NCBI GenBank assembly: GCA_964650945.1
Contig: CAZYXU010000003.1
Coordinates: 1,754-65,753 of the forward strand
Direction: 5' to 3'
DNA: 64,000 nt
DNA from: an uncultured Verrucomicrobiota bacterium
Lineage (GTDB): Bacteria > Verrucomicrobiota > Kiritimatiellia > JAAZAB01
The position numbers and the translations under genes are program-made. Shown here in pieces: positions 31,196 through 42,331 of the stretch. Numbering within the stretch: the first letter of the stretch is position 1; each line of letters begins with the position of its first letter. The notes below the pieces were generated by a model, which was not told the DNA's origin, made no database searches, and was given only the letters and a program-made list of their open reading frames with translations.

Positions 31196-32203
31196 ATGAA
31201 ACAATATCGTGTAGGCGTGGTCGGTATCGGCGCGGTCGGGACGGAGATGGTGCGGGTGCTGCGGCAGCGTAAATTTCCGGCCGCCGAAATCCGGATCATC
31301 GCGCGGACCGCGCGCACCGAGGTGATTGACGGCGAAAACTACTCCGTGGCGGCCGCCGCGCCCGACGCTTTCGACGGGTTGGATTTCGCTTTCTTTGCCG
31401 GGACGGAAGGCGCCAAGGGCGCCTCGCAGCAGTTTGGCTGGCCGGCGGTGGAAAAGGGCGTGGTGGTGATCGACAATGGCGACGATTACCGCATGGACTC
31501 CCGCGTGCCGCTGGTGATCCCGGAGATCAATGCCGCGGCCCTGGCCAAGCACCAGGGGTTGATCGCCAATCCGAATTGCAGCACCATCATTGCGTTGATG
31601 GCGGTGGCCCCGTTGTACCGCGCCGCCCGTGTCCGCCGCTTCATCGCCAGCACTTACCAGGCGGTTTCCGGCACCGGCCGGCAGGCGCTGGAGGAATTGG
31701 AGCAGCAAGCCCGGGATTATGCCGCCGGCCAGCCCTTGCGGCATGCGGTCTATCCGCACCAGATCGCCTTCAACCTGATTCCCAAGATCGGCGGGGTCAA
31801 GCCGGGCTGCGCCGGGCAGACCAGCGAAGAAGTCAAAATGCTCAACGAGAGCCGCAAAATCCTGGGCGACAAGAAATTGCGCGTCAGCGCCACCTGTGTG
31901 CGCGTGCCGGTGATGAACGGCCACTGCGAGGCCTTGAACCTGGAGTTTGACCGCCCGATGGAACCGGAGGAGGCGCGGGAAATCCTGTCCAAAGCGCCGG
32001 GCGTGGTCCTGGCGGATGATTTGGAGCGCGACGATTACCCCATGCCCATCCGGGCGGCGGGCCAGGATAATGTCCTCGTCGGCCGCATCCGGCGCGACGA
32101 CAGCGTGAAAAACGGGTTGGCCCTGTTTGTCTCCGGCGACAACATCCGCAAGGGCGCCGCGACCAATGCCGTGCAGATTGCCGAGCAACTGATCCAGCCG
32201 TGA
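31196..32203 (+). CDS. asd: Aspartate-semialdehyde dehydrogenase
   Basis: VGVVGIGAVGTEM Rossmann motif, the NPNCSTI active-site Cys motif, and a C-terminal dimerisation domain. Confidence 0.9.
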   Translation: MKQYRVGVVGIGAVGTEMVRVLRQRKFPAAEIRIIARTARTEVIDGENYSVAAAAPDAFDGLDFAFFAGTEGAKGASQQFGWPAVEKGVVVIDNGDDYRMDSRVPLVIPEINAAALAKHQGLIANPNCSTIIALMAVAPLYRAARVRRFIASTYQAVSGTGRQALEELEQQARDYAAGQPLRHAVYPHQIAFNLIPKIGGVKPGCAGQTSEEVKMLNESRKILGDKKLRVSATCVRVPVMNGHCEALNLEFDRPMEPEEAREILSKAPGVVLADDLERDDYPMPIRAAGQDNVLVGRIRRDDSVKNGLALFVSGDNIRKGAATNAVQIAEQLIQP

Positions 32204-32207
32204 CGGG

Positions 32208-32375
32208 TTATTCGGTGAAAATGGGCAACGCCGGGGCGCCTTCCCAGTTCTGCGGGGTGTTCCACGGCATGGAATTGTCCGAGGTGTCGGTGGTGGCGCA
32301 GCCGCCCAGCAATCCCGCCGCCAGCAGCAACAAGATGGCGCATACCAGGCGGGCGTTGTCTTGCAGGACTTGCAT
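32208..32375 (-). CDS. Small (55 aa) lipoprotein, not in the ORF track
   Basis: Reverse strand: MQVLQDNARLVCAILLLLAAGLLGGCATTDTSDNSMPWNTPQNWEGAPALPIFTE*. It has a signal peptide and an LGGC lipobox. It fills the gap between asd and the next reverse-strand gene. Confidence 0.45.
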   Translation of the reverse strand: MQVLQDNARLVCAILLLLAAGLLGGCATTDTSDNSMPWNTPQNWEGAPALPIFTE

Positions 32376-32377
32376 GT

Positions 32378-33256
32378 TTATAACATGATGTTGTCGCCCT
32401 CGCGCGGCGCGAGTTTCTGCCAGTCAACCAGGATTTCGGCGATGGCCATGTTTTCCACCACGCTTTCCACGCGCACCTTGCCCACCAGTTGATCGGCCCG
32501 GTGAACCAGGAATTCCAGCTTGGGGGCGATGGGCGTCATGTTATCCTTGTCGAATCCCAGCACCACGAAATTCCATTCGGGATTGGCGAAGAGCACCACC
32601 CCCAACTGGCCCTGGGACAACTGGGCCTTGCTGGCCTCGGGGTTGGCGCGCGCTTCCAGGTCGGTCACCTTCTGTTGCAGCCCGGCGATTTGATCCTGGA
32701 GACTGCGCTTCTGGATTTCCAGGTCGTCAATCGCCACTTTCAGCGTGTCCACGCGTCCGTTCAACTCTTTTTCGGAGCGCTCCATGGCGCGGATCGTGTT
32801 GTCGCGCTCGGCCACGGAGGCTTGCAGCCCGGTAATGCTTTCATCGCGCTCCTGAATGGTGGTGCGCGCGCCGGCCAGGTCGCTTTTCGTGGCGCGCAGG
32901 TCTTCCGTGGTCTGCGCCAGCGTATCCTTGGTCTCCCCCAGGACGCGGCGGGTATCGTTCAGGCGCGCCAACTGGTTCTGGGCGGCGACCGTGAGCTGGC
33001 TGAGCGGGGCGTCCATGGGGGCGGGGCCGCCGGCGGGATTTTTAAAGGCTTTGAGCTGGTCCTCGGCGATCACGACAAATGCCGGATTGTCATCGCTTTG
33101 CTCAACGGTGGCGGCAATCTGCCGCACGGCGGTTTCCAGTTTCTGGGTGCGGCCCTTCAGCTCCTCGCGCTGCGGAAACAGGCGGATGCCGAACCATAAC
33201 GCGGCCGCGCTGGCCAGCAACAACAAGATCAATACGAGTTTTAAAAAGGTTTGCAT
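32378..33256 (-). CDS. Single-pass membrane coiled-coil protein, hypothetical
   Basis: N-terminal TM FLKLVLILLLLASAAALWF and a long heptad-like region rich in L/E/Q/R. GGAGG RBS before ATG 33256. Confidence 0.5.
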   Translation of the reverse strand: MQTFLKLVLILLLLASAAALWFGIRLFPQREELKGRTQKLETAVRQIAATVEQSDDNPAFVVIAEDQLKAFKNPAGGPAPMDAPLSQLTVAAQNQLARLNDTRRVLGETKDTLAQTTEDLRATKSDLAGARTTIQERDESITGLQASVAERDNTIRAMERSEKELNGRVDTLKVAIDDLEIQKRSLQDQIAGLQQKVTDLEARANPEASKAQLSQGQLGVVLFANPEWNFVVLGFDKDNMTPIAPKLEFLVHRADQLVGKVRVESVVENMAIAEILVDWQKLAPREGDNIML

Positions 33257-33409
33257 AAATTCCACGCCTCCGTCCCGGTCCATGGACCCCCATCCAACTG
33301 GCATTCACATTGTATCAACTTGCGGCCGGGATACAACGATTATTTTACGCACAGGAAAAATTTGTCCGGCGGCTGGCGCTCGCCTCCCGGGGCCGCGCAA
33401 AACCGCCCG

Positions 33410-35335
33410 TCAATCCGGACGTTCCACGATCCGGATGGACTTGATGCGCACGTCGCCCTGGCCGGTATAATATACCCGCGGTTCGATGCTGAAAAAATCG
33501 TCCGCCTCGAAATCCAGTGCCTGCGCGCCTTGCGCGCCGGCCGGGACCGTGCGTTCGGCCAGCACCCGGCGGCCGCTGTCGGCGCTGACATCCAGCACCG
33601 CCGGCGGGCCGCCGCCGCCGGCTTCCATTTCGAAGAGCGCGGTGAAGCGGCCGGGGAAAACGTACCGGTAGTTGCCGAAAACCAGCTTGCCCTTGCGGTC
33701 GCGGCCGGCGCGGGCCACGCGCTCTGTCGGGGCGTCATCCGCGGCCCGGACGTCCGTGCCGGTCTGCCGGTGCGCCCGGGCCGGGCTGATGGACACCGCG
33801 TAGGGTTCGTTGCGGTCCATGGGCCGCAACTCCGGCGGGGCGCCGCCGGCCAGCCGGAACGGCCGGCGGTTTTTAAAATAACGGACTGCCGCCACTTCGG
33901 CGCCATCCGCGGCCAGCATGACCAGCGGCGCGCTGTTCAAGCCGTGCGGGTTGGCGGTGGCGAAGTCCAGGGGGTGATCGCCCTGCCAGCCTTGGTTGAC
34001 CATGAACACCAGCGCATCCGCCGGCGCGCGCGCAATCGTCGCCAGCAATGCCCGGCGCGGTTCGATCGTTTCCCGCAAAGCGTGCGCCGCCTTCAAACTG
34101 AAACGGACCGGTCCGGCCAGCACCGCCAACGCCAGCGCCAGGACGGTCCAGCGGCGGATGGCCGGGGTCCGGGCCGACATACCCCACAACCGGCCGGCGC
34201 CCGCGGCCGCGCCGGCGATAATGAACGGCAGGATTTCGAAATAATACCCCGGCCCGGTTTCGTGCGGGCCGCGATGGAAAAAGAAAAGATAACCCGCCGG
34301 CACGGCGATCACCGGGCCGGCCAGGATCAGCCAGCGGCTTCGCGGCCGGCCGGCCAGCAGCAGGCCGGCCCATAAGAGCAATCCGCCCGGGAATCCCCAG
34401 AGCCAGCCATCCGCCAGACGCAGGTTGTTTTGTAATATCTTCCATCCCTTGGCCAGGGTGTGCAGGCCGTAATGGCGCTGGCCGAAACCCAGCGCCTCCA
34501 GCGGCTCGTAATACAGGTAGGTCATCTTGAACGGGTTGCCCAGGATAAGGTGATTGTAAAACAGCAGGGCCGCCGCGCCGGCCGCGGCGCCGCCGGCAAA
34601 TAATGCCGCCCCGCGCAAGGTGCGCTCGTCGCGCCGGACAGCCAGCGTCCACAGCGCGTCCACCCCGAACGGCAGCGCCATCAGCAGCGCCGTATAAGTG
34701 CGGTTGACGCATAAAAATCCCCAGGCCAGCCCGGCCAGCAAGGCCGCGCCGGGCCGGCCGGACCGCCGCCACCAGAGGTGGCAAACCAGCAGGCCGGCGA
34801 CCGCGAGAAGTCCGCTGGTATGACTGAGCAGCGTGGCAAAGGTGAATAAAAACCAGGGGCTGATCAACAACAGGACTCCGGCAAACATTCCGGCGGTTGC
34901 CGGGGCGCCGGCTGCGGCCGGGGTGCCGGCTGCGGCCGGGGTGCCGGCTGCGGCCGGGGCGGCGGCCAGGGCGGCGGCCAGGGCGATGAGCAACAGCGCC
35001 AGGCCGGCGCCAAAAAACACGCTGAAGTAAGGACTGCCCGCCCAGGCCCCGGGCAGCAGGAACAAAGCATGGCCGGGCGGGTAGCGGGAAACCCAGCCGG
35101 TTGCGCGCTCCATGATATTCATCTTATGGGAGAGCAGGGGCGCGAAGGGGGGGCAGGGCCGGCTGAACCCGCCTTCCAGAAAAGTGTTGACCTGGAAAAT
35201 ATAACTCTGCTCGTCGGTGGTCAGGGGTGTGCGGCATAGAACGCGGTTGGCGAGTTGCTGGACAACGATCCCGGCCGCCGCGGCCAGGGCCAGGAGCGCC
35301 AGTCCGCAAATGATTTTTTTTAGTTGCGGATTCAA
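33410..35335 (-). CDS. ArnT/PMT-like (GT39/GT83, PMT_2-type) polyprenyl-phosphate-sugar-dependent glycosyltransferase with a C-terminal soluble domain
   Basis: First periplasmic loop TTDEQSYIFQVNTFLEGG matches the DE(x)Y…L catalytic motif of ArnT/PMT enzymes. About 11 TM helices. Contains a perfect 18-bp ×3 tandem repeat (AAAGTP). Confidence 0.7.
   Translation of the reverse strand: MNPQLKKIICGLALLALAAAAGIVVQQLANRVLCRTPLTTDEQSYIFQVNTFLEGGFSRPCPPFAPLLSHKMNIMERATGWVSRYPPGHALFLLPGAWAGSPYFSVFFGAGLALLLIALAAALAAAPAAAGTPAAAGTPAAAGAPATAGMFAGVLLLISPWFLFTFATLLSHTSGLLAVAGLLVCHLWWRRSGRPGAALLAGLAWGFLCVNRTYTALLMALPFGVDALWTLAVRRDERTLRGAALFAGGAAAGAAALLFYNHLILGNPFKMTYLYYEPLEALGFGQRHYGLHTLAKGWKILQNNLRLADGWLWGFPGGLLLWAGLLLAGRPRSRWLILAGPVIAVPAGYLFFFHRGPHETGPGYYFEILPFIIAGAAAGAGRLWGMSARTPAIRRWTVLALALAVLAGPVRFSLKAAHALRETIEPRRALLATIARAPADALVFMVNQGWQGDHPLDFATANPHGLNSAPLVMLAADGAEVAAVRYFKNRRPFRLAGGAPPELRPMDRNEPYAVSISPARAHRQTGTDVRAADDAPTERVARAGRDRKGKLVFGNYRYVFPGRFTALFEMEAGGGGPPAVLDVSADSGRRVLAERTVPAGAQGAQALDFEADDFFSIEPRVYYTGQGDVRIKSIRIVERPD
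34900..34960. repeat. In-frame 18-bp tandem repeat (GGGGTGCCGGCTGCGGCC, ~3.5 copies) inside the GT39-like gene
   Basis: Read directly. It encodes (P)AAAGT repeats in a predicted loop. Confidence 0.6.
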
Positions 35336-35339
35336 AGCC

Positions 35340-35410
35340 GATCGTTATCCTGCCTGTTGAATTCTGCCCCCGAATACTGCCCCCCGCGAACACTGACCAC
35401 CGAACACTCC
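35340..35410. repeat. Degenerate copy of the intergenic repeat family (TTGAATTCTGCC…CGAACACTGACCACCGAACACT)
   Basis: Both modules are present between two reverse-strand genes. Confidence 0.4.
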
Positions 35411-35416
35411 GCCGAG

Positions 35417-37210
35417 TCATGCCCCCTTCAGCCACCCCCGCCCGCAATACCAGCGCGCGGTTTCCACCAGGCCGTCGGCATCGGGATGGCGCGGCTGATA
35501 GCCCAGGCGCTCGCGCAGTTTGGCGGTGTTGAACGAGCGGTCCTTGGTGAAAAACGCCAGCCGGCGCCGGTGGATCGGCGGCTCGATCCCCAACCGCCGG
35601 CAAACCGCCTCGCAGAGATCGGCGGCCCAGAAGAACGGCGCCGCGGGCAGGCGGATCACCCGCAGGTTGCGGCCCAGTGCCCGCGCCACGATCCGCGCCA
35701 TCCGCTCCAGGGTGATGCATTCGGGATTGCCGCAGATGAAGACTTCGCCCAGGGCCGCCGGATGGGTGGCGGCCAGGACGATGACATTGGTCAGGTCGTC
35801 CACATGGATCAGGTGGTAAAGCCCGGGGCTGTGGCCGAGCATGATCATCCACGGCCGCGCCGCCATCCGGAAGAATTTCAGCAGGCGGGTGTCGCCCGGG
35901 CCGTAAATGGCCGCCGGACGGATGACGGTGAAGGGCAGGTTGTTGGCGCGGGCAAAATCAATCAGCCAGGTTTCCGCCTCCGCCTTGGTGCGCTGGTAAA
36001 TGTCGCCGGGATGCATGGGCGTGGTTTCATCCGCCGGGGGATGTTCGATGTGGCCCAGGACGCCCACGGTGGAGACATGGATGAAACGCTGGAAGCCGGG
36101 ATTGCGCAGCGCGGCCCGGGCCAGTAGTTGGGTGCTGGTGACATGCACCCTGGTGTACATTTCATCCTGGTAGCGTGCTTCGCGGAAGGCGGCCGCCACA
36201 TGGAAGATGTAGCTTACATCCCGGGCGGCGGCTTCCACCACCGCCGGATCATAGACGTCGCCGCGGAACCACGTGATGGGCAAGTCGCGGAATTGTTCAA
36301 GATTGGACGAGGCGCGGGCGATGGCCCGTACAGCCAGGCCGGCATTGACCAGCTTGCGGGTCAGCACCGCGCCGGTAAACCCCGTGGCGCCGGTTACGAG
36401 CACGGAGGCGCCCGCGGGTATGGCGCAGGGCGGCGAAGCCTTGCTGAAGAGCGGTGTAAAAACCTTTTCGGCATTCCGCTCCATGTGGAGAATTATCGGG
36501 GAGCCGAAAAGGCGGGTCAAACCGATGCTCCCCGGCAGCCATTCCAGGGCCCGGGAAAGCCCGCGGCATTGCAAAATACGGTGCAGCACCATCGGCCAGA
36601 AAAACTGGCCGGCGCGGCGGCGCGGGCGGAATGCGGCGCGGGCAAAGGCGGCGGCGATTTCCGCGTGGCGGAACAGCCGGAAAGTGCGGGTGTTGCCCTC
36701 CAGCTTGCGCTTGGCGGGAAACAGCCACTCGGCCAGGCAGTTCAGGCTCTGGCTGGTAGGGTAGTCCACCACCGCCGCGGTTTGCGCCACCCGGCATAAT
36801 TCTGCAATCAGCGCCGGCCAGCGCTCCCCGCAATGCATCAGCAGCCGCACGCACACCACCGCCGCGAATTCGCGGTCGGCGAAAGGCAGCGCCAGGGGGT
36901 CGGCCCGCAGAAATTCGCATTGCCCGGCGCGCACGAGTCCGTCTATCCGCCGGCGGCAGGATGGATCGCTGCCGGTAACGGTCACCCGGTATCCCGCCCG
37001 GACGAGCGCCCCGGCCAGTTGGCCGTGGCCGCCGCCCACCTCCAGCACGGCGCTGCCGCGCGGGAGGGAAGCCAGGCATTTTAAGACCAGGCGTTCCTGG
37101 ACCTGGAGCATCCAGGCGCCGCTGGGGCCGGCGAACCGCGCGGCATAGCCGTCCGAGGCGGTTTCAATGTCGGCGTCAAGGCGGGGCGGATTGGTTTGAG
37201 TGGCGTCCAT
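35417..37210 (-). CDS. Bifunctional fusion: class-I SAM-dependent methyltransferase (N-terminal) plus NAD-dependent epimerase/dehydratase SDR (C-terminal)
   Basis: VLEVGGGHGQLAGALVRAGYRVTVTGSDPS (MTase motif I). VLVTGATGFTGAVLTRKL (SDR TGxxGxxG) and YQRTKAEAE (YxxxK catalytic dyad). No stop codon between the two domains. Start ATG at 37210 (MDATQTNPP). The upstream part of the track ORF is rejected. Confidence 0.7.
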   Translation of the reverse strand: MDATQTNPPRLDADIETASDGYAARFAGPSGAWMLQVQERLVLKCLASLPRGSAVLEVGGGHGQLAGALVRAGYRVTVTGSDPSCRRRIDGLVRAGQCEFLRADPLALPFADREFAAVVCVRLLMHCGERWPALIAELCRVAQTAAVVDYPTSQSLNCLAEWLFPAKRKLEGNTRTFRLFRHAEIAAAFARAAFRPRRRAGQFFWPMVLHRILQCRGLSRALEWLPGSIGLTRLFGSPIILHMERNAEKVFTPLFSKASPPCAIPAGASVLVTGATGFTGAVLTRKLVNAGLAVRAIARASSNLEQFRDLPITWFRGDVYDPAVVEAAARDVSYIFHVAAAFREARYQDEMYTRVHVTSTQLLARAALRNPGFQRFIHVSTVGVLGHIEHPPADETTPMHPGDIYQRTKAEAETWLIDFARANNLPFTVIRPAAIYGPGDTRLLKFFRMAARPWMIMLGHSPGLYHLIHVDDLTNVIVLAATHPAALGEVFICGNPECITLERMARIVARALGRNLRVIRLPAAPFFWAADLCEAVCRRLGIEPPIHRRRLAFFTKDRSFNTAKLRERLGYQPRHPDADGLVETARWYCGRGWLKGA

Positions 37211-37215
37211 AAAGG

Positions 37216-38292
37216 TCACAAGGCATCCAGTAACTGGCGCACTTCCGCGGCCAGGTCGCGGGCCGCTTCCCGCCGCATGCGGGCGCGCTGCGCAGCCAGG
37301 ACGGTCTGGCGCAACGGCTCGTCCGTCAGGACGCGGTGCATCAAGGCCGCCAGTTCGGGCGCCGATAAATCCGCGTATAGCACGCCGGCGCCGTCCAGCG
37401 CTTCGGGCATGCCGCCGGCACGGCGCGCCAGCACCGGCACGTCGGCATGCATGGCTTCCAGCAGCGGCAGGCAGTAGCCCTCGTGGGCGCTGGGGCAGAC
37501 ATACAGGTCCGCCACCCGGTAATAGGCCGCCAGGCCGGCGGCGGCGGCAAAGCCTTCGAAGCAGACGTTCGGCAGGTCCAGGTCTCCCGCCAGCATGCGC
37601 AGCATGGTGCAATAGCGCGGAGCGCTGCGGTTGGATCCGACAAGCAACAGGCGGCTGAACGGGTTCAGCGCCTTGTGATACCAGGCGAAGGCCTGGATCA
37701 AATCTTCCACGCGCTTGTTGGGGGCGATCCGGCCCACGAAGAGGATGTTTTTCAGCCGGTTGCGCGGCCCGGAGAATTTCCGCATGATCAACGGCTCCGG
37801 GGCGGCATCCAGGGGGGCGGGGTCGAAAATCAACGGCAACACCCGCACGTTTGCAATGCCCAGCGCCGCCAATTCGGCGGCATTGAACCGGGATACCGTC
37901 CACACCGCCGCCGCGCCGCGCGCCGTTGCCGGCAGCCGCGCGCGCGCCTCCTCCAGGCGCGCGCGGAGGCCGTCGTCATAGCCGTCAAAATAATCGGCCG
38001 GCGTGATGTTGTGGTAAACCAGGATGCGGGCGGCGGGGCTGGCGAGGAAAACCTCCGCCGCCGGCGAGGCGATGCCGTAGTGGTGCAGGCAGATATCCTC
38101 CGGCGCGCCGCGGTATTCCGCCAGCGGCCGGCAATCCGCGCGTAAAGACGGCGAAACGCAGCGCATGTCGGCGTAAATCTCCGCGGGATGGCCCCCGTCC
38201 CGGAAAATCCTGCGCAGACAGACGGCCATGTGCGAAATGGCGTCGCCATCGGCATACCCGGCCAGTAACTGGTCAATGCGTTTTTTTTGCAT
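37216..38292 (-). CDS. GT4-family (glycosyl transferase group 1) glycosyltransferase
   Basis: EGYCLPLLEAMHADVPVLA (EX7E motif) and a C-terminal GT-B Rossmann domain. Its stop is 3 nt from the next gene's start. Confidence 0.75.
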   Translation of the reverse strand: MQKKRIDQLLAGYADGDAISHMAVCLRRIFRDGGHPAEIYADMRCVSPSLRADCRPLAEYRGAPEDICLHHYGIASPAAEVFLASPAARILVYHNITPADYFDGYDDGLRARLEEARARLPATARGAAAVWTVSRFNAAELAALGIANVRVLPLIFDPAPLDAAPEPLIMRKFSGPRNRLKNILFVGRIAPNKRVEDLIQAFAWYHKALNPFSRLLLVGSNRSAPRYCTMLRMLAGDLDLPNVCFEGFAAAAGLAAYYRVADLYVCPSAHEGYCLPLLEAMHADVPVLARRAGGMPEALDGAGVLYADLSAPELAALMHRVLTDEPLRQTVLAAQRARMRREAARDLAAEVRQLLDAL

Positions 38293-38315
38293 GTTATGTT
38301 GTTTGACGCTTTGAA

Positions 38316-38759
38316 CTAACGCCGGTCCGCTGCCAGGCGCTGTTCCAGTTTTTCCACCCGCGCGCGCAACTCGTCCGTCTCCCGGCAACGCAACTGCCAT
38401 TCGTTTTCCAGCGCCTGGGTGAACAGGCCGTTGATCAGGTTCTGTCGGAACGCGATCCGGTCGTGCTGGTAGCGCAGCAGCTTCCAGAGCAGGCGTTTGA
38501 CGCGCTGTAAACACCCGCCGGCCGCGCCCGGCCGGCGGGGGATTTCAAAATCCAGCGTATCCACGGCGTCCCGGTAGCGCAGCAGCCGCAGAAAATTCGC
38601 GTGGTACCCGGCGTCGGAGTCCGCGCCGGCCAGGGCCGGCGCGCCGATTTCCGGGGAAACCGCGCTGGGTTGCCGGCGGCTGCGCCGCAGGCAGTCAGCC
38701 GCCTGGCGCACCTGTTCCGCCAGGTCCGGGCGGTCCTGTCCGGCAACGCTGATAGCCAT
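38316..38759 (-). CDS. Hypothetical protein, helical / coiled-coil
   Basis: GGGAGG RBS 10 nt before ATG 38759. Its start lies 2 nt after the stop of the DUF368 gene. Confidence 0.45.
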   Translation of the reverse strand: MAISVAGQDRPDLAEQVRQAADCLRRSRRQPSAVSPEIGAPALAGADSDAGYHANFLRLLRYRDAVDTLDFEIPRRPGAAGGCLQRVKRLLWKLLRYQHDRIAFRQNLINGLFTQALENEWQLRCRETDELRARVEKLEQRLAADRR

Positions 38760-38761
38760 GT

Positions 38762-39736
38762 TCAATGCCTCCCGATGCGGGCGCATAAACGCACAAACGG
38801 ATTCTTGCGCGTTTGCGCATGATCCAGGGCGCTGATGAGGATGAAGCCCAGCAGGCAGAGCGCGAGCGCCTCCCAGAAGACGGCGCCCGTAAAATCCGGC
38901 ATGACGTTGATTTCACGGATGGGGACGGCCTGCCCGTGCCGGTCAACGATGGTTTCGAGCACTTCCTTGAACGGCCAGATTTTACGCAGCGAGCCCAGCA
39001 TGAATCCCGTCAACAGCGCGATCGTGGCCTGGTGGTAATGGCGCAGGAGCCAGCTCAGGAAGCGGACGAACCCGATGATGCCCGCCGCGATGCCCGCCGC
39101 CACCGGCAACAATCCCAGGATGTCCAGGGTTTTGATCTGCTCCAGGACGTAATTGTATTGCCCCATGATCAGCAGGATGAACGAGCCGGAAATGCCGGGC
39201 AGGATCATCGCGATCACCGCCACCACGCCGCTGGCGAATAAAATCAAGGGGGTATGCGGCATTTCCCGCGGCACCATCCCGATCAAGATCCAGGCCAGGA
39301 CCGTGCCCAGCAGGAGCGCTGCAAGCGTGCCGACCCCCCAGCGCAGTTCGACGCTGATGGAAACGATGGAGGCCAGGATCAGGCCGAAGAAAAAAGCATA
39401 CAACAAGACGGTTTGATACGTCAGCAGCCAACTGATCAGGCCGGCCAGGGCAAAGATTGCCAGCGCCAGGCCGGCGCCCAGCGGCAGCAGGAACCGCCAG
39501 GGCACATGGTCGAGCGCCGCGCGGAACCGGCCGCGCAACAGTAATTGCGCCAAACGCAGGTCGAAAGTCTTGATGGCATCGAGCAATTCCTCGTAAATGC
39601 CCATGATGAACGCCATTGTGCCGCCGGAGACGCCCGGGATGACATTGGCCGCGCCGGTCACCAGGCCGGCAAAAACCAGGTAAGCGTAATTTTTCCAGGT
39701 CCGCGCGCGTTTCCGTTCCGGTTCCAACTGGCTCAT
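38762..39736 (-). CDS. DUF368-family membrane protein (PopT-type candidate undecaprenyl-phosphate translocase)
   Basis: Internally duplicated signature IPGVSGGTMAF … LPGISGSFILL within ~8 TM helices, the hallmark of DUF368. Confidence 0.75.
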   Translation of the reverse strand: MSQLEPERKRARTWKNYAYLVFAGLVTGAANVIPGVSGGTMAFIMGIYEELLDAIKTFDLRLAQLLLRGRFRAALDHVPWRFLLPLGAGLALAIFALAGLISWLLTYQTVLLYAFFFGLILASIVSISVELRWGVGTLAALLLGTVLAWILIGMVPREMPHTPLILFASGVVAVIAMILPGISGSFILLIMGQYNYVLEQIKTLDILGLLPVAAGIAAGIIGFVRFLSWLLRHYHQATIALLTGFMLGSLRKIWPFKEVLETIVDRHGQAVPIREINVMPDFTGAVFWEALALCLLGFILISALDHAQTRKNPFVRLCARIGRH

Positions 39737-40054
39737 AATGTATAATTCATCCTTTTAATGTTTTCAACATGCCGGCGGCAGTTTATAATGTCTTCCATGC
39801 AAACGCAAAACAAAATCATCGGCCGGCCCCGCCGGCCACGGCTGCGTCATGCTTGCGGCTCACCAGGGACGGTTCGCCCCACCAAAGGCAAATATGGCCA
39901 AAATGGTGGGGCGAGGCGCCCCGGCCGAGCCGTCTTTTCCGAGTTTGACGCAGCCCTGCCGCGCCGGCCGGCGGCGTGCCATGCCGCGCGTCTCTACACC
40001 GCCCCGACCACGGCGCTCCTGTGCCAGACATTGCTGGCGGCGGAAAACACCGCC

Positions 40055-40825
40055 GTGACCCTGCCGTCCAAGGGCGCGCGCTGGGCGCGCCTGACGGTGT
40101 TTTGCCCGTCGCCCGCGGCGGCGCGCCGGCTGGCGGCCCGGCTGCGCGGCTGGCTGGACGGCCTGCCGGGACCGGCCGGGCGCGTGCAGTGCGTCCGCCT
40201 GCCGGCGGCCGATTGGCGGGAAAACTGGAAACGCTTTTTTCCGGCGCGCCGGGTGTCGCCGCGGCTGGTGGTCCGGCCGCCCTGGCGCAGTTTTCCGGCG
40301 CGGCCGGGCGATTGTGTGATCGAATTGAATCCGGGCTTGAGTTTCGGCACCGGCCTGCATCCCACGACGCGCGGCTGTCTGCGCCTGCTGGACGAATTTG
40401 ACGCCGCCGCGCCGGGCGGCTCTTTTCTGGATATCGGCTGCGGATCGGGCATCCTGGCGATTGCCGCCGCGCGCCTGGGTTGCCGGCCGGTGCTGGCGCT
40501 GGATCATGACCCGCAGGCCGTGCGCGCCGCCCGGCAAAACCGCCAGGCCAACGGGCTGGACCGCCGGATTGTCATCCGGCGGGCCGATGTCCGGCGGTTG
40601 GACAACTTCCCGGCCTGCGATCTGGTGGCCGCCAACCTGCTGGCGGGATTGCTGATTGAAGCCGCCCCGCAAATCAGCCGCCTGGCGGCGCGGCATTTGA
40701 TTGTTGCCGGGATTTTACGCCCGCAATACGCCGCGGTGCGCCGCGCCTACCAGCGGCAGGGATTCCGCGAAATCCGCGCCATCCCCGATGGCGAATGGCA
40801 GACCGGCGGATTCGTCCGCCGGTAG
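40055..40825 (+). CDS. prmA: Ribosomal protein L11 methyltransferase PrmA (short, Thermus-like form)
   Basis: DWRENWKRFF (the conserved W-x-x-x-W motif), ELNPGLSFGTGLHPTTRGCL and FLDIGCGSGILAIAA (SAM motif I). The start is uncertain. GTG 40055 gives 256 aa. The track ORF from 39758 begins with an Arg-rich, non-coding-like N-terminus. Confidence 0.65.
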   Translation: MTLPSKGARWARLTVFCPSPAAARRLAARLRGWLDGLPGPAGRVQCVRLPAADWRENWKRFFPARRVSPRLVVRPPWRSFPARPGDCVIELNPGLSFGTGLHPTTRGCLRLLDEFDAAAPGGSFLDIGCGSGILAIAAARLGCRPVLALDHDPQAVRAARQNRQANGLDRRIVIRRADVRRLDNFPACDLVAANLLAGLLIEAAPQISRLAARHLIVAGILRPQYAAVRRAYQRQGFREIRAIPDGEWQTGGFVRR

Positions 40826-40849
40826 GGGAAATTTGTTTTGCGCCAGGCC

Positions 40850-41160
40850 GGCAAAAATGACATAATTACCGAACCCCGAACCACCGAACCACTGAACCCC
40901 GAACCACCGAACCACTGAACCCCGAACCACCGAACCACTGAACCCCGAACCACCGAACCACTGAACCCTGAACCACGAACCACTGAACCCTGAACCCTGA
41001 ACCCCGAACCCCGAACACCGAACCCCGAACCCCGAACCACCGAACCCCGAACCACTGAACCACCGAACCCCTAAAACCGAACCCCGAACACCGAACACTG
41101 AACACCGAACACTGAACCCCGAACACTGAACCCCGAACCCCGAACCACCGAACACTGAAC
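40850..41160. repeat. ~310-bp degenerate microsatellite of ~39 tandem CYGAACM(C) heptamer/octamer units (VNTR-like)
   Basis: Read directly: ccgaaccccgaaccaccgaaccactgaaccccgaacc…gaacactgaacacg. Same unit as the TIR heptamers of the 8800–9111 element. It lies between prmA and mlaE. Confidence 0.9.
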
Positions 41161-41188
41161 ACGTTGTCGAGAGATTGGATTAAGACGC

Positions 41189-42331
41189 ATGCCTGCATCA
41201 GGGCCCAATCCGGATATGATTGACTGCCGGCGCATGCCGGACGGGACGCTGGCGGTGCGGCTCGCCGGCCCTTGGTTATGCGCGGCCGGCCTGCCGGCCG
41301 TCGAACCCGTCCGCCGGGCGCTGGCGGCGGGCGGCGCGCGGCGGGTGGTTTTGGATGGCGCGGCCATCGCCAGGTGGGATAGCGCCCTGCTGGTTTTTAC
41401 GCGCGCGGTGATCGGGCTCGGCCGGATGGCGGGCGCGCCCGTGGAAATCCAAAATATGCCCCGGGGCGCCGCGGAACTGCTGCGCCTCGCGGAGGCCGTG
41501 CCCGCCGGCGCCGGCTTGCGCCCGGGGCCGGAACGCGTTGCCTGGCTGGCGCGGGTGGGGCAATCGGCCGTCCGGTTTTGGACTGACAGCCGGGCGACCC
41601 TGGCCTTTCTGGGCGAATCGGTGATGGTTTTTGGACGGCTGCTGCGCGGGCGCATCCGGTGGCGGCGCCGGGATTTCTGGGTGGTGGTCCAGGATTGCGG
41701 GCCGGCGGCGCTGCCGATTGTCACGGTCATCAGCCTGCTGGTCGGCACCATCCTGGCTTTCCTGGGCGCGCTGCAACTCAAGCTGTTTGGCGCCGAAATT
41801 TACATCGCCGACCTGGTGGGCGTGGGCATGGTGCGCGAAATGGGCTCGCTGATGACGGGCATCATCATGGCCGGCCGCACCGGGGCCGCCTTTGCCGCGC
41901 ATCTGGGCACGATGCAGGTCAACGAGGAGATTGACGCGCTGCGGACCATGGGGTTTGATCCGATGGAATTTCTGGTGCTGCCGCGGGAATTGGCGCTGAT
42001 CCTGATGATGCCGCTGCTGGCGACTTACGCGAATTTCGTCGGCATCCTCGGCGGGGCGCTGGCGGGGGTGCTGCTGTTTGACCTGACTTTTGCGCAGTAT
42101 TACACGCAGACGGTTAACGCCGTGACCATCCCGGCCGTGGCGTCGGGCGTGATCAAGAGCTCCGTCTATGGCGTCCTGATCGCCTTTTCAGGCTGCATGC
42201 AAGGCATGTTTTGCGGCCGCAGCGCCTCCGCCGTGGGCGCGGCGACGACGGCGGCGGTGGTCAATGCGATCGTTTACATCATTGTGGCCGACGCGGTGAT
42301 TTCCGTGATCTACACCCTGGTGGGATTTTAA
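41189..42331 (+). CDS. mlaE: MlaE-family ABC transporter permease with an N-terminal STAS (anti-sigma-antagonist-like) domain
   Basis: The N-terminal ~110 aa is STAS-like (VVLDGAAIARWDSALLVF). The C-terminal has MlaE/YrbE permease TM helices and the EIDALRTMG motif. Confidence 0.8.
   Translation: MPASGPNPDMIDCRRMPDGTLAVRLAGPWLCAAGLPAVEPVRRALAAGGARRVVLDGAAIARWDSALLVFTRAVIGLGRMAGAPVEIQNMPRGAAELLRLAEAVPAGAGLRPGPERVAWLARVGQSAVRFWTDSRATLAFLGESVMVFGRLLRGRIRWRRRDFWVVVQDCGPAALPIVTVISLLVGTILAFLGALQLKLFGAEIYIADLVGVGMVREMGSLMTGIIMAGRTGAAFAAHLGTMQVNEEIDALRTMGFDPMEFLVLPRELALILMMPLLATYANFVGILGGALAGVLLFDLTFAQYYTQTVNAVTIPAVASGVIKSSVYGVLIAFSGCMQGMFCGRSASAVGAATTAAVVNAIVYIIVADAVISVIYTLVGF

Follow-up and report, generated by a model that had tools for sequence, protein, structure and literature searches.

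The five genes lie co-directionally on the minus strand within positions 33410–39736 of the window, the 64-kb stretch of DNA analyzed here, which derives from the MAG of an uncultured Kiritimatiellia bacterium (Table 1). All five were found where the original prediction had placed them. Homologues of all five occur elsewhere, and they are therefore real genes and not chance ORFs. Gaps of 2–6 nt had been claimed for three junctions, but only two are this short, DUF368/hyp (2 nt) and GT4/MT::SDR (5 nt); hyp/GT4 measures 23 nt and MT::SDR/GT-C 81 nt. The latter spacer is the sole long gap within the block, measures 50–81 nt with little conservation in relatives, and gave no match in an Rfam search. 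Housekeeping synteny flanks the block (prmA ... asd, leuB).

Table 1 Features of the five-gene locus (positions in the window).
Feature	Position	Strand	Details
DUF368 / PopT-family polyprenyl-phosphate translocase homologue	38762..39736	(-)	324 aa; PF04018 275 bits
Small hypothetical (hyp), GT4 partner	38316..38759	(-)	147 aa; small N-terminal part + one long helix
GT4 glycosyltransferase, GT-B, retaining-type	37216..38292	(-)	358 aa; PF00534 83 bits
Methyltransferase::extended-SDR fusion (MT::SDR)	35417..37210	(-)	597 aa; Pfam + NCBIfam
Class I SAM methyltransferase domain	36629..37093	(-)	aa 40–194 of MT::SDR; PF13649, PF08241, PF13489
Extended SDR domain	35435..36403	(-)	aa 270–592 of MT::SDR; PF01370, PF01073
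MT::SDR/GT-C spacer, 81 nt	35336..35416	(-)	13-nt direct repeat inside
Divergent ArnT/PMT_2-like GT-C-fold glycosyltransferase	33410..35335	(-)	641 aa, TTG start; AlphaFold model + hhalign
D41-E42 codons, GT-C protein	35210..35215	(-)	acidic pair directly after TM1, predicted first extracytoplasmic loop
C-terminal beta-sandwich domain, CBM-like, GT-C protein	33413..34018	(-)	aa 440–641; model + Foldseek
In-frame tandem repeat, GT-C gene	34899..34966	(-)	18 nt x 3.8, encodes (AAAGTP)n; TRF

The DUF368 protein matches PF04018 over its full length (cut-off 26 bits) and aligns across 293 residues with the Vibrio-type NCBIfam model. Its scores against NF052564 (281 bits) and NF052563 (99 bits) reach neither equivalog cut-off of 400 bits. 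These matches support the predicted membership of the PopT family, and PopT/DUF368 has been demonstrated to be an Und-P translocase (PMC9876793; preprint 10.1101/2022.02.03.479048). The proposed link between polyprenyl-phosphate translocase genes and adjoining GT-C glycosylation genes also has precedent: DUF368 genes cluster with those of the archaeal GT-C AglB, and UptA with YkcB/YkcC (Roney & Rudner preprint 10.1101/2022.02.03.479048). Homologues in L003 and L005 are 70–80% identical. The gene is absent from the equivalent position in L001, where the gap between prmA and hyp is just 43 nt.

The hyp protein matched nothing in Pfam, NCBIfam or PADLOC. Its ORF reaches an upstream ATG at 38786, and judging from the sequence the true start is probably M10 (ATG at 38759), 8 nt upstream of which lies a Shine-Dalgarno GGGAGG. 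In the AF2 model (pLDDT 88.7) residues 79–146 form a single 68-residue helix. At the 50% level its family comprises 220 representatives; these measure about 140–160 aa throughout, with the motif LWKLLRYQHDRxxFxQNLIN. GT4 lies directly downstream in every locus checked, and hyp and GT4 are a stable pair, with a Rosetta-stone fusion into one protein in homologue P0376. The pair occurs without MT::SDR, DUF368 or GT-C in L100, comes after bamA-skp-lpxD in L101, and has a methyltransferase recurring beside it (window clade, L022, L101, L019). The GT4 also matches PF13692 (82 bits), and direct reading gives its predicted EX7E motif as E271-GYCLPLL-E279, so that this assignment is borne out. Relatives at ≥56% identity fill more than 120 clusters in Kiritimatiellia, Verrucomicrobia and Lentisphaerae; the best NCBIfam match is GlcNAc-phosphatidylglycerol synthase, followed by lipid and small-molecule GT4s, all far under cut-off. 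A role of the GT4 in loading Und-P, as originally proposed, is without family precedent, and the same genes are adjoined in relatives by a GT2 that carries a TM domain at its C-terminus.

The two halves of the fusion protein are recognized by the Pfam models Methyltransf_25/11/23 (aa 40–194) and Epimerase/3beta-HSD (aa 270–517; PF01370 119 bits, PF01073 86 bits). The methyltransferase carries motif I, VGGGHG, at aa 58 and reaches the cut-off of no NCBIfam model; its profile matches solved methyltransferases over the Rossmann core only, headed by phosphoethanolamine N-methyltransferases, MitM and a glucose O-methyltransferase. The SDR motifs, read directly, are TGATGFTG at 273, S380-T381 and Y405-QRT-K409. 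Its best solved relative is 3wj7, a "putative oxidoreductase" (127 bits), and its best models are HpnA, OleD, 3beta-HSD and SdmB. HpnA, the best NCBIfam model, aligns over 2–324 of its 327 positions, but at 151 bits against a cut-off of 367.65; the SDR is therefore a paralogue, and its identity as HpnA is ruled out. With all best matches under cut-off, the models assign a substrate to neither half. The label "epimerase/dehydratase" derives from Pfam only, and the dehydratase/decarboxylase residues S-T-D/S-E read S-T-V-G in the window protein. The predicted fusion is real, but not unusual in its clade: it is found in at least 30 clusters, with homologues in Kiritimatiellia at 62–96% identity. 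Standalone SDR homologues (53–74% identity) are spread across PVC bacteria, unfused methyltransferase and SDR genes lie side by side in L013, L015, L016 and at least 11 metagenome loci, and more than 20 loci have the two either next to each other or fused. They are a second stable, Rosetta-stone pair, common as adjacent genes in PVC bacteria and fused in the window protein.

The GT-C protein gave no Pfam or NCBIfam match even at E ≤ 10. Its AF2 model (pLDDT 88.1, pTM 0.87) has a GT-C fold, with ArnT (5ezm/5f15), STT3, ALG9, EmbB, PglB, AftA and Pmt4 as top Foldseek matches, and hhalign relates it to PMT_2 proteins with a probability of 99.9% (E 2e-34). The predicted ArnT/PMT-like character is thus upheld by model and profile comparison, and the label GT39 applies at the fold and profile-profile level only. 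The predicted "DE...Y" motif is confirmed, with no variation at D41, E42 or Y45 among 18 sequences, and the profile comparison aligns D41-E42 onto the D-E of PMT_2 proteins. TM1 corresponds to helix 3–32 of the model. Residues 440–641 are all-beta and resemble CBM4, CBM6 and CBM35 modules (Foldseek E 1e-3 to 8e-3); two further proteins encoded in the L017 cluster have this domain too, with about 30% identity. The tandem repeat (TRF score 115, 94% matches) encodes part of a loop between helices 103–125 and 144–157, and all 17 homologues lack this insertion; the segment has a pLDDT of about 55. The TTG-AAx start is kept in four genomes. Only 17 full-length homologues were found, compared to more than 1000 matches each for GT4 and SDR, and GT-C, with 64–69% against about 84%, is less well conserved than the genes beside it; it is 61–69% identical in relatives where GT4, MT::SDR and cc308 are about 77–84% identical. 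Distant homologues lie in glycan clusters with GT2(+TM), PF03706, UbiA, GT4 and methyltransferase genes. L019 has a hyp-like gene with a split GT4 and a methyltransferase after it, 6 kb away from a distant GT-C homologue.

The order DUF368-hyp-GT4-MT::SDR-GT-C, with its 2-nt and 5-nt junctions, is kept in the nearest MAGs, and the MT::SDR-GT-C adjacency is common to five MAGs (window, L001, L003, L004, L009). Co-conservation of the whole block nevertheless fails: in two close relatives, DUF368 is absent from the bin297 locus and GT-C from the SBF912 locus, unrelated genes take the place of GT-C in L005/L006, and neither DUF368 nor this GT-C is present in 80 metagenome loci with the SDR. The predicted glycan context is recovered on a wider scale. 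Over 84 loci the neighbors of SDR relatives are surface-glycan genes: GT4 (31), PF03706 (18), hexapeptide acyltransferase (18), GT2 (12), pyruvyl transferase (9) and a long PMT_2 GT-C with a lectin-like domain (6). Carbamoyl transferase genes also occur there, and genes of PF03706, GDSL lipases and deacetylases are often found as neighbors.

In the block, two conserved gene pairs are loosely combined with two optional genes, which falls short of a complete pathway. In a scan of 45 candidate ORFs across the 64 kb, none encoded a polyprenyl-phosphate glycosyltransferase of the GT2 type, a priming phosphoglycosyltransferase, a flippase for lipid-linked sugars or a nucleotide-sugar enzyme, which leaves the "self-contained pathway" originally proposed unsupported. 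That interpretation is supported in part: the GT-C, the PopT family and the glycan context stand, while self-containment, co-conservation and GT4 loading do not.

The five genes probably contribute to the attachment of a modified sugar to the cell envelope. More specifically, we consider it an evenly balanced proposition that this chromosomal locus is part of a polyprenyl-phosphate-dependent envelope glycan/glycolipid modification system built from separable modules, for which we infer donor, acceptor, step order and topology. The first module would be a cytoplasmic glycosyltransferase unit of GT4 and its obligatory long-helix partner, and the second a tailoring unit that joins, in one protein, a SAM methyltransferase and an extended, NAD(P)-dependent SDR. 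The third would be the lineage-restricted, very divergent ArnT/PMT_2-like GT-C, with the D41-E42 loop and CBM-like domain predicted to be periplasmic, and the fourth the DUF368/PopT-family polyprenyl-phosphate translocase. On a lipid-linked intermediate, the cytoplasmic enzymes may attach a sugar and modify it, by methylation and by keto-reduction or epimerization. After flipping, GT-C would move the sugar off its polyprenyl-phosphate carrier and onto an acceptor glycan of the envelope, perhaps recognized by its beta-sandwich domain, and DUF368 would then bring back the freed carrier. Carrier loading and flipping would have to be encoded outside the locus. We favor this reading because of the GT-C fold (ArnT/STT3/PglB/Emb/Pmt4) with its CBM-like C-terminus, the PMT_2 profile homology with aligned DE and invariant D41/E42/Y45, the PF04018 membership of DUF368 in an Und-P translocase family that clusters with AglB, the gene order and paired genes, and the surface-glycan genes around SDR relatives and distant GT-C homologues, including L019. 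The missing carrier GT2, priming transferase, flippase and nucleotide-sugar enzyme count against it, as do the variable presence of DUF368 and GT-C, the rarity and lower conservation of GT-C with its 81-nt spacer, and the lack of an assignable substrate for SDR and methyltransferase.

Several of these points fit a somewhat doubtful but possible alternative, in which the five genes are juxtaposed with independent functions. DUF368 would recycle Und-P generally, for peptidoglycan, hyp-GT4 and MT::SDR would be conserved housekeeping genes of the envelope, and GT-C would be an accessory gene inserted between MT::SDR and a conserved coiled-coil gene, so that the five would not make up a single pathway. 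The loss of DUF368 in L001 and replacement of GT-C in L005/L006, the unequal conservation, the spacer, the solitary hyp-GT4 pair in L100, the 0 of 80 metagenome SDR loci with DUF368 or this GT-C, and the housekeeping flanks all agree with this. The tight junctions and single strand, the MT::SDR-GT-C adjacency in five MAGs, the glycan and GT-C genes repeatedly surrounding SDR relatives, and the hyp-like, GT4 and methyltransferase genes of L019 argue the other way. It is rather unlikely that the hyp-GT4, methyltransferase and SDR core instead synthesizes or modifies a membrane glycolipid or phospholipid head group and not a polyprenyl-linked sugar, with GT4 glycosylating diacylglycerol or phospholipid, methyltransferase and SDR modifying the head group, PF03706 (MprF-like) proteins elsewhere flipping the product, and GT-C unrelated or later-acting. 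The best GT4 match, the phosphoethanolamine and phosphatidylethanolamine N-methyltransferases among the best solved methyltransferase relatives, the lipid-associated SDR models, the nearby PF03706, GDSL lipase and deacetylase genes and the L101 location would suit it, but the lipid-type matches are all weak and confined to generic fold cores, the same neighborhoods hold GT2, pyruvyl transferase, carbamoyl transferase and PMT_2 genes typical of polysaccharide loci, and the window has no linked acyltransferase or phospholipid synthase. Very improbable is an arrangement resembling what we take to be that of WbdD/WbdA in E. coli O8/O9a (ABC-transporter-dependent O-antigen), with a coiled-coil "ruler" holding a GT4 polymerase and a methyltransferase capping the chain end: the long helix of hyp, its obligatory, once fused, pairing with GT4 and the recurring methyltransferase are reminiscent of it, but neither a Wzm/Wzt ABC transporter nor WecA is encoded nearby, the GT4 is single-domain, a kinase domain is absent, and hyp matches WbdD in neither sequence nor fold.

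Among known systems, HpnA (hopanoid-associated "sugar epimerase", TIGR03466) has the curated model with the highest score for the SDR, aligned end to end but below cut-off, and the window has no hopanoid genes; to our knowledge the function of HpnA itself is not established. The DUF368 protein resembles the Und-P translocases PopT and VCA0040 by its full-length PF04018 match but scores under both equivalog cut-offs, and its gene is dispensable at this locus in one close relative. The mycobacterial decaprenyl-phosphate arabinose route (UbiA DPPR synthase, DprE1 FAD oxidase, DprE2 SDR, GT-C Emb/Aft) may offer a parallel, as a lead. There, too, an SDR gene adjoins a GT-C; Emb and AftA are among the GT-C fold matches, UbiA genes adjoin distant GT-C homologues, and SDR relatives adjoin an FAD oxidoreductase in 13 loci. 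However, the window SDR is of the extended and DprE2 of the classical type, the FAD enzyme is GlpD-like and not VAO-like, and the window has neither UbiA nor an FAD enzyme. In three-component systems (GtrA/GtrB/GtrC; B. subtilis YkcC GT2, YngA GtrA, YkcB GT39 and UptA) a GT-C likewise adjoins a polyprenyl-phosphate translocase gene, but the carrier-charging GT2 and GtrA-type flippase are absent from the window locus, which instead has the GT4 with its helical partner and MT::SDR. The Arn system of lipid A aminoarabinose (PmrHFIJKLM; ArnA, ArnB, ArnC, ArnD, ArnE/F, ArnT) differs in that the N-terminus of the window fusion is a methyltransferase and that of ArnA a formyltransferase. The window SDR lacks the S-T-S-E decarboxylase residues and matched UXS weakly, with ArnA not present among the 60 matches listed; the window has no ArnB, ArnC, ArnD or ArnE/F, and its GT-C fails the Pfam PMT/PMT_2 models and has a CBM-like domain absent from ArnT. 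Nevertheless, the MT::SDR layout is comparable to two-domain ArnA with its C-terminal extended SDR, ArnT is the best structural match of GT-C, both share the logic of a polyprenyl-phosphate carrier that needs recycling, and in one relative (L007) a PF01522 deacetylase, a GT2 and a flippase-like gene adjoin MT::SDR.

The DUF368, hyp (a small 147-aa protein), GT4, methyltransferase–SDR fusion (MT::SDR) and GT-C genes at 33410-39736 are co-directional and all lie on the minus strand, as originally predicted, in DNA of ~65% G+C. The junction gaps along the block are 2, 23, 5 and 81 nt; only two junctions are thus very tight, where three of 2-6 nt had been claimed. The local gene order is prmA, DUF368 - hyp - GT4 - MT::SDR - GT-C - coiled-coil gene, asd - leuB, with Mla genes on the far side of prmA. 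A scan for sigma-70 promoters and terminators found about as many as in shuffled sequence and does not define transcription units; promoter-like sites were slightly more numerous than there, and none is placed to define an operon. An Rfam scan of 32000-41500 returned nothing meaningful. The spacer before GT-C holds a 13-nt direct repeat, which lacks conservation among relatives and any match in Rfam. At 355 aa, the divergent prmA ORF is ~55 aa longer than its homologues (297-300 aa) and is separated from DUF368 by a 21-nt gap, so that the real prmA start and a shared promoter region are uncertain. The product of a gene 105 nt downstream of GT-C combines a coiled coil with a membrane helix at its N-terminus, has no Pfam match and is 80-84% identical in four relatives. 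Since it stays in place even in relatives without GT-C, it is probably not a member of the cluster.

Positions of the block, of its surroundings and of related features in the compared loci (L numbers)
Feature	Position	Strand	Remarks
DUF368	38762-39736	-	full-length PF04018 match
hyp	most plausible start ATG 38759	-	2 nt past DUF368 stop; GGGAGG 8 nt upstream
GT4	37216-38292	-	PF00534, EX7E
MT::SDR, 597 aa	35417-37210	-	class I SAM methyltransferase + extended SDR
GT-C, 641 aa	33410-35335	-	TTG start (35333-35335)
18-nt repeat inside GT-C gene	34899-34966		3.8 units, 94% matches
13-nt direct repeat	35359-35384		GGGGGCAGTATTC / GGGGGCAGAATTC on coding strand, within 81-nt spacer
Coiled-coil protein, 308 aa	32378-33304	-	
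prmA ORF	39758-40825	+	first ATG 21 nt (39737-39757) from DUF368 start
Disrupted MT::SDR	L003:3463-5097		
~860-aa membrane family	L001:16263-18845, L022:4762-7374, L015:1198-3741, L017:11866-17064		
UbiA-family and PF03706 genes	L002:13829-14863, L017:8218-9159		beside distant GT-C homologues
Proteins with GT-C-type beta-sandwich	L017:1-1013, L017:4811-7096, L017:10001-11866		~30% identity
bamA-skp-lpxD to GT2	L101:1692-11234		Kiritimatiellia-like contig

The GT-C protein has no Pfam match at E ≤ 10, PMT (PF02366) and PMT_2 (PF13231) included, and no NCBIfam match at E ≤ 1. A search of 5.8 billion proteins yielded only 17 full-length relatives, none of which carries a precomputed Pfam domain, and the family profile found only noise among PDB sequences (E about 1). 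NCBI calls one relative 'glycosyltransferase family 39', and PF13231 is present in a few of the weak matches. An AlphaFold model built on the family alignment (pLDDT 88.1, pTM 0.87) has ArnT (5ezm, 5f15), STT3, ALG9, EmbA/B/C, PglB, AftA and Pmt4 as its best PDB matches in Foldseek, with an E-value of 7e-6 to ArnT 5ezm and TM-scores of 0.4-0.5 for the matches. The model shows the GT-C fold, with an N-terminal multi-helix membrane domain superimposable on ArnT, PMT or STT3. In an alignment of 18 sequences D41, E42 and Y45, just past the first helix, are invariant, as are S83-R84-Y85, H89, H172, R212, Y214 and E367. D41-E42 sit 9 residues after helix 3-32 in the model, and the protein thus has a conserved acidic D-E motif in the predicted first extracytoplasmic loop. 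Alignment by hhalign to PMT_2-bearing proteins gave 99.9% probability (E 2e-34, 346 columns) with the D-E motifs aligned, in a test that is partly circular, as weak matches of the query supplied four of the eight templates. Together, the model, the Foldseek matches and the profile-profile match indicate that the label 'ArnT/PMT-like polytopic glycosyltransferase' was correct as to fold and superfamily. Residues ~440-641 match the beta-sandwiches of CBM4, CBM6 and CBM35 in Foldseek. The protein is a rare divergent branch missed by curated models, with a lectin-like domain predicted to be periplasmic. Its beta-sandwich recurs in three proteins of the L017 cluster, a locus with a distant GT-C homologue, which suggests a common glycan-binding module. 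Translated, the 18-nt repeat inside the gene reads (AAAGTP)n; it falls within a loop predicted to connect two membrane helices, and none of the 17 homologues has this insertion. The TTG start (TTG-AAx, 'MN...') is shared by four genomes (the window, L001, L003 and L009), and such a conserved non-ATG start may mean low translation.

The GT4 was correctly recognised as such: it matches PF00534 at 83.4 bits (gathering score 26.4) and has the EX7E motif in its C-terminal domain (E271-GYCLPLL-E279). More than 120 clusters at ≥56% identity occur in Kiritimatiellia, Verrucomicrobia and Lentisphaerae. Directly 5' of the GT4 gene, often with stop/start overlap, stands hyp in every locus examined, including distant loci that have no MT::SDR, DUF368 or GT-C, and in the single homologous protein P0376 the two are fused. 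The hyp protein has no match in Pfam (E ≤ 10), NCBIfam (E ≤ 1) or PADLOC, nor does its model in Foldseek below E = 2. Its family comprises 220 representatives at the 50% level, nearly all of ~140-160 aa; they share LWKLLRYQHDRxxFxQNLIN as a motif, after which comes a long helix. P0410 (1312 aa), in which this motif is partially matched ten times, was set aside as a repeat protein. On the distant contig L101, a standalone MT, 56% identical to the MT domain of the fusion, stands divergently beside hyp-GT4 with no SDR nearby. There the gene order runs from bamA-skp-lpxD through a PF03706 fusion protein and hyp-GT4 to a GT2 with a TM tail, which hints at a link of hyp-GT4 to outer-membrane lipid or LPS biogenesis.

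The MT::SDR protein consists of an MT domain (aa 40-194) and an SDR domain (aa 270-592). The former matches PF13649 (45.8 bits) and PF08241 (40.6 bits) above their cut-offs and has VGGGHG as motif I at aa 58. Its profile matched only the generic Rossmann core in the PDB and NCBIfam, with no NCBIfam model reaching its cut-off, and no substrate class is therefore assignable. The SDR domain matches PF01370 at 118.9 bits, with TGATGFTG at 273, S380/T381 and Y405-QRT-K409, of which Y405 and K409 are invariant among 21 fusions. The proposed epimerase/dehydratase assignment thus stands as far as an extended SDR is concerned, and fails for the dehydratase residues: positions 380-383 read S-T-V-G, not the S-T-D-E or S-T-S-E that supplies the acid/base residues of sugar 4,6-dehydratases or decarboxylases such as RmlB and ArnA/UXS. 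An invariant Arg follows the second strand (A-R299-ASS), a position that general SDR rules relate to NADP(H) use. Judged by R299 and S-T-V-G, an NADP(H)-dependent reductase would fit at least as well as an epimerase. The best curated model is HpnA (TIGR03466), at 151 bits against a cut-off of 367.65; with less than half the required score and no hopanoid genes in the vicinity, membership in this hopanoid family was rejected. The closest solved relative, 3wj7, is an uncharacterised 'putative oxidoreductase', and the literature found on 3WJ7 and Gox2253 did not make its function clearer. The fusion had been called unusual, yet it occurs in ~30 clusters, mainly in Kiritimatiellia, and Lentisphaerae, Verrucomicrobia and other MAGs encode MT and SDR next to each other as two genes in different frames, an arrangement of at least 11 metagenome loci as well as L013, L015 and L016. 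Standalone SDR relatives number in the hundreds at 62-74% identity. MT::SDR is a lineage-specific joining of a widespread gene pair and no oddity of one genome.

Neighbour counts for 84 loci holding SDR reveal GT4 of another subfamily (31 loci), PF03706 flippase-like proteins and hexapeptide acyltransferases (18 each), GlpD-like FAD oxidoreductases (13), GT2 (12), GDSL lipases (11), pyruvyl transferases (9), and, in six loci each, a membrane protein of ~860 aa with no Pfam match and long PMT_2 GT-C proteins bearing an F5/8-type C lectin domain. Other glycan clusters contain distant GT-C homologues, at 36-39% identity. In L002, tandem paralogues stand beside UbiA, GDSL, PF03706 and a large PMT protein. 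The L017 homologue is accompanied by two GT2 genes, one of them with a TM tail, as well as PF03706, UbiA and a methyltransferase, and further by the ~860-aa protein in two copies, one GT4 and an asparagine synthase. Next to the L019 homologue lies a small, divergent GT2; 6 kb off there is a hyp-like gene together with a split GT4 and a methyltransferase. Such neighbourhoods place every component in envelope glycan or glycolipid biosynthesis, and across loci MT/SDR, the hyp/GT4 pair and GT-C enzymes appear repeatedly, if modestly, linked. Members of the ~860-aa family are 36-49% identical and adjoin GT2, MT/SDR genes and hyp-GT4, with the two tandem copies near a distant GT-C homologue; the family may be another unrecognised envelope glycan enzyme. 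The GT2 of L001 and its 860-aa neighbour have no counterpart in the window. The UbiA-family prenyltransferase and PF03706 genes beside the distant GT-C homologues, together with the GlpD-like FAD neighbours of SDR, are reminiscent of the mycobacterial decaprenyl-phosphate arabinose route.

The DUF368 protein belongs to the PopT family, as proposed: residues 28-270 cover positions 2-245 of 246 in PF04018, at 275.4 bits (gathering score 26). Against NF052564 and NF052563, the NCBIfam polyprenyl-phosphate transporter models of characterised PopT and Vibrio VCA0040, it scores 281.3 and 99.3 bits, both below the 400-bit equivalog cut-offs. The original prediction went further, to a self-contained pathway in which a sugar is made, loaded onto Und-P and transferred, and the carrier recycled. 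When 45 candidate ORFs from across the 64 kb were scanned with Pfam, no GT2 (Glycos_transf_2; ArnC/GtrB-like), no priming phosphoglycosyltransferase, no lipid-linked sugar flippase (GtrA, ArnE/F, PF03706) and no nucleotide-sugar enzyme turned up, and to our knowledge no GT4 enzyme charges polyprenyl phosphate. The first two steps therefore need more than this locus. In other genomes PF03706 and GtrA genes lie near the homologous genes, which in relatives are also accompanied by a GT2 carrying a C-terminal TM domain. Our leading reading, at about even odds, is that the locus encodes one portion of a carrier-dependent modification of envelope glycans. In it, the cytoplasmic GT4, its helical partner and MT::SDR would attach a residue to a lipid-linked intermediate and tailor it there, and the divergent GT-C would transfer it to an acceptor outside the cytoplasmic membrane via D41/E42, guided by the CBM-like domain. 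The carrier would be returned by DUF368, and the charging GT2 and the flippase would be encoded elsewhere.

The main rival, which we regard as somewhat less probable, is that independent envelope functions stand side by side by synteny. Relatives of the window genes come from Kiritimatiellia MAGs, and the five genes were not found to be co-conserved as a block. The closest full-block relative, L003, keeps all five, with MT::SDR apparently disrupted: its frame matches aa 1-471 and 559-597 only, the source's gene caller put opposite-strand genes there, and the break is either a deletion or pseudogene or an assembly error. DUF368 is missing from L001 (bin297), where prmA and hyp are only 43 nt apart. 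In L005 and L006 (SBF912) DUF368-hyp-GT4-MT::SDR is kept and ~6 kb of unrelated genes occupy the GT-C position, while in L004 and L009 GT-C directly follows MT::SDR at the contig edge. Identities among these genomes are 61-69% for GT-C and ~77-84% for GT4, MT::SDR and the coiled-coil gene. All 80 metagenome loci holding SDR lack both DUF368 and the window-type GT-C. Thus the block order holds in a narrow clade only, and both end genes are dispensable there. A second rival, in which the conserved core would modify the head groups of membrane lipids, we think improbable, and a WbdD/WbdA-like chain-length system is remote. A defence system, prompted by PF20706 'GT4-conflict', was rejected because PADLOC, run on all six proteins, returned nothing beyond coiled-coil noise and a weak MT match.

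The interest of the locus is in three uncharacterised families and not in a complete novel pathway. These are a GT-C transferase branch that escapes the current models of Pfam and NCBIfam, a small, widespread helical protein that partners a conserved GT4, with the natural fusion as evidence of acting together, and an MT and SDR pair kept across PVC bacteria in surface-glycan clusters (53-74% identity in the SDR part). Kiritimatiellia are, as far as we know, mostly uncultured and little studied in their envelope chemistry. It is conceivable, if on balance unlikely, that they share with related PVC bacteria an envelope glycoconjugate system not yet described. Such a system would combine a GT4 with an obligatory long-helix partner from an unnamed ~150-aa family, an MT/SDR pair tailoring carrier-linked sugars, very divergent GT-C transferases with lectin-like domains and, elsewhere, the unnamed ~860-aa membrane protein family; it would make a methylated surface glycan or glycolipid that no cultured organism is known to have. 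If the pieces do not act together, these are ordinary envelope genes side by side; if they do, the ArnT/Gtr-type carrier-dependent scheme is extended to a new enzyme set. A polyprenyl-phosphate translocase near carrier-dependent glycosylation of the ArnT/Gtr type has a published precedent (Roney & Rudner, 10.1101/2022.02.03.479048). With a homologue of such a translocase nearby, the window locus would, judging by its genes, be a variant of that arrangement.
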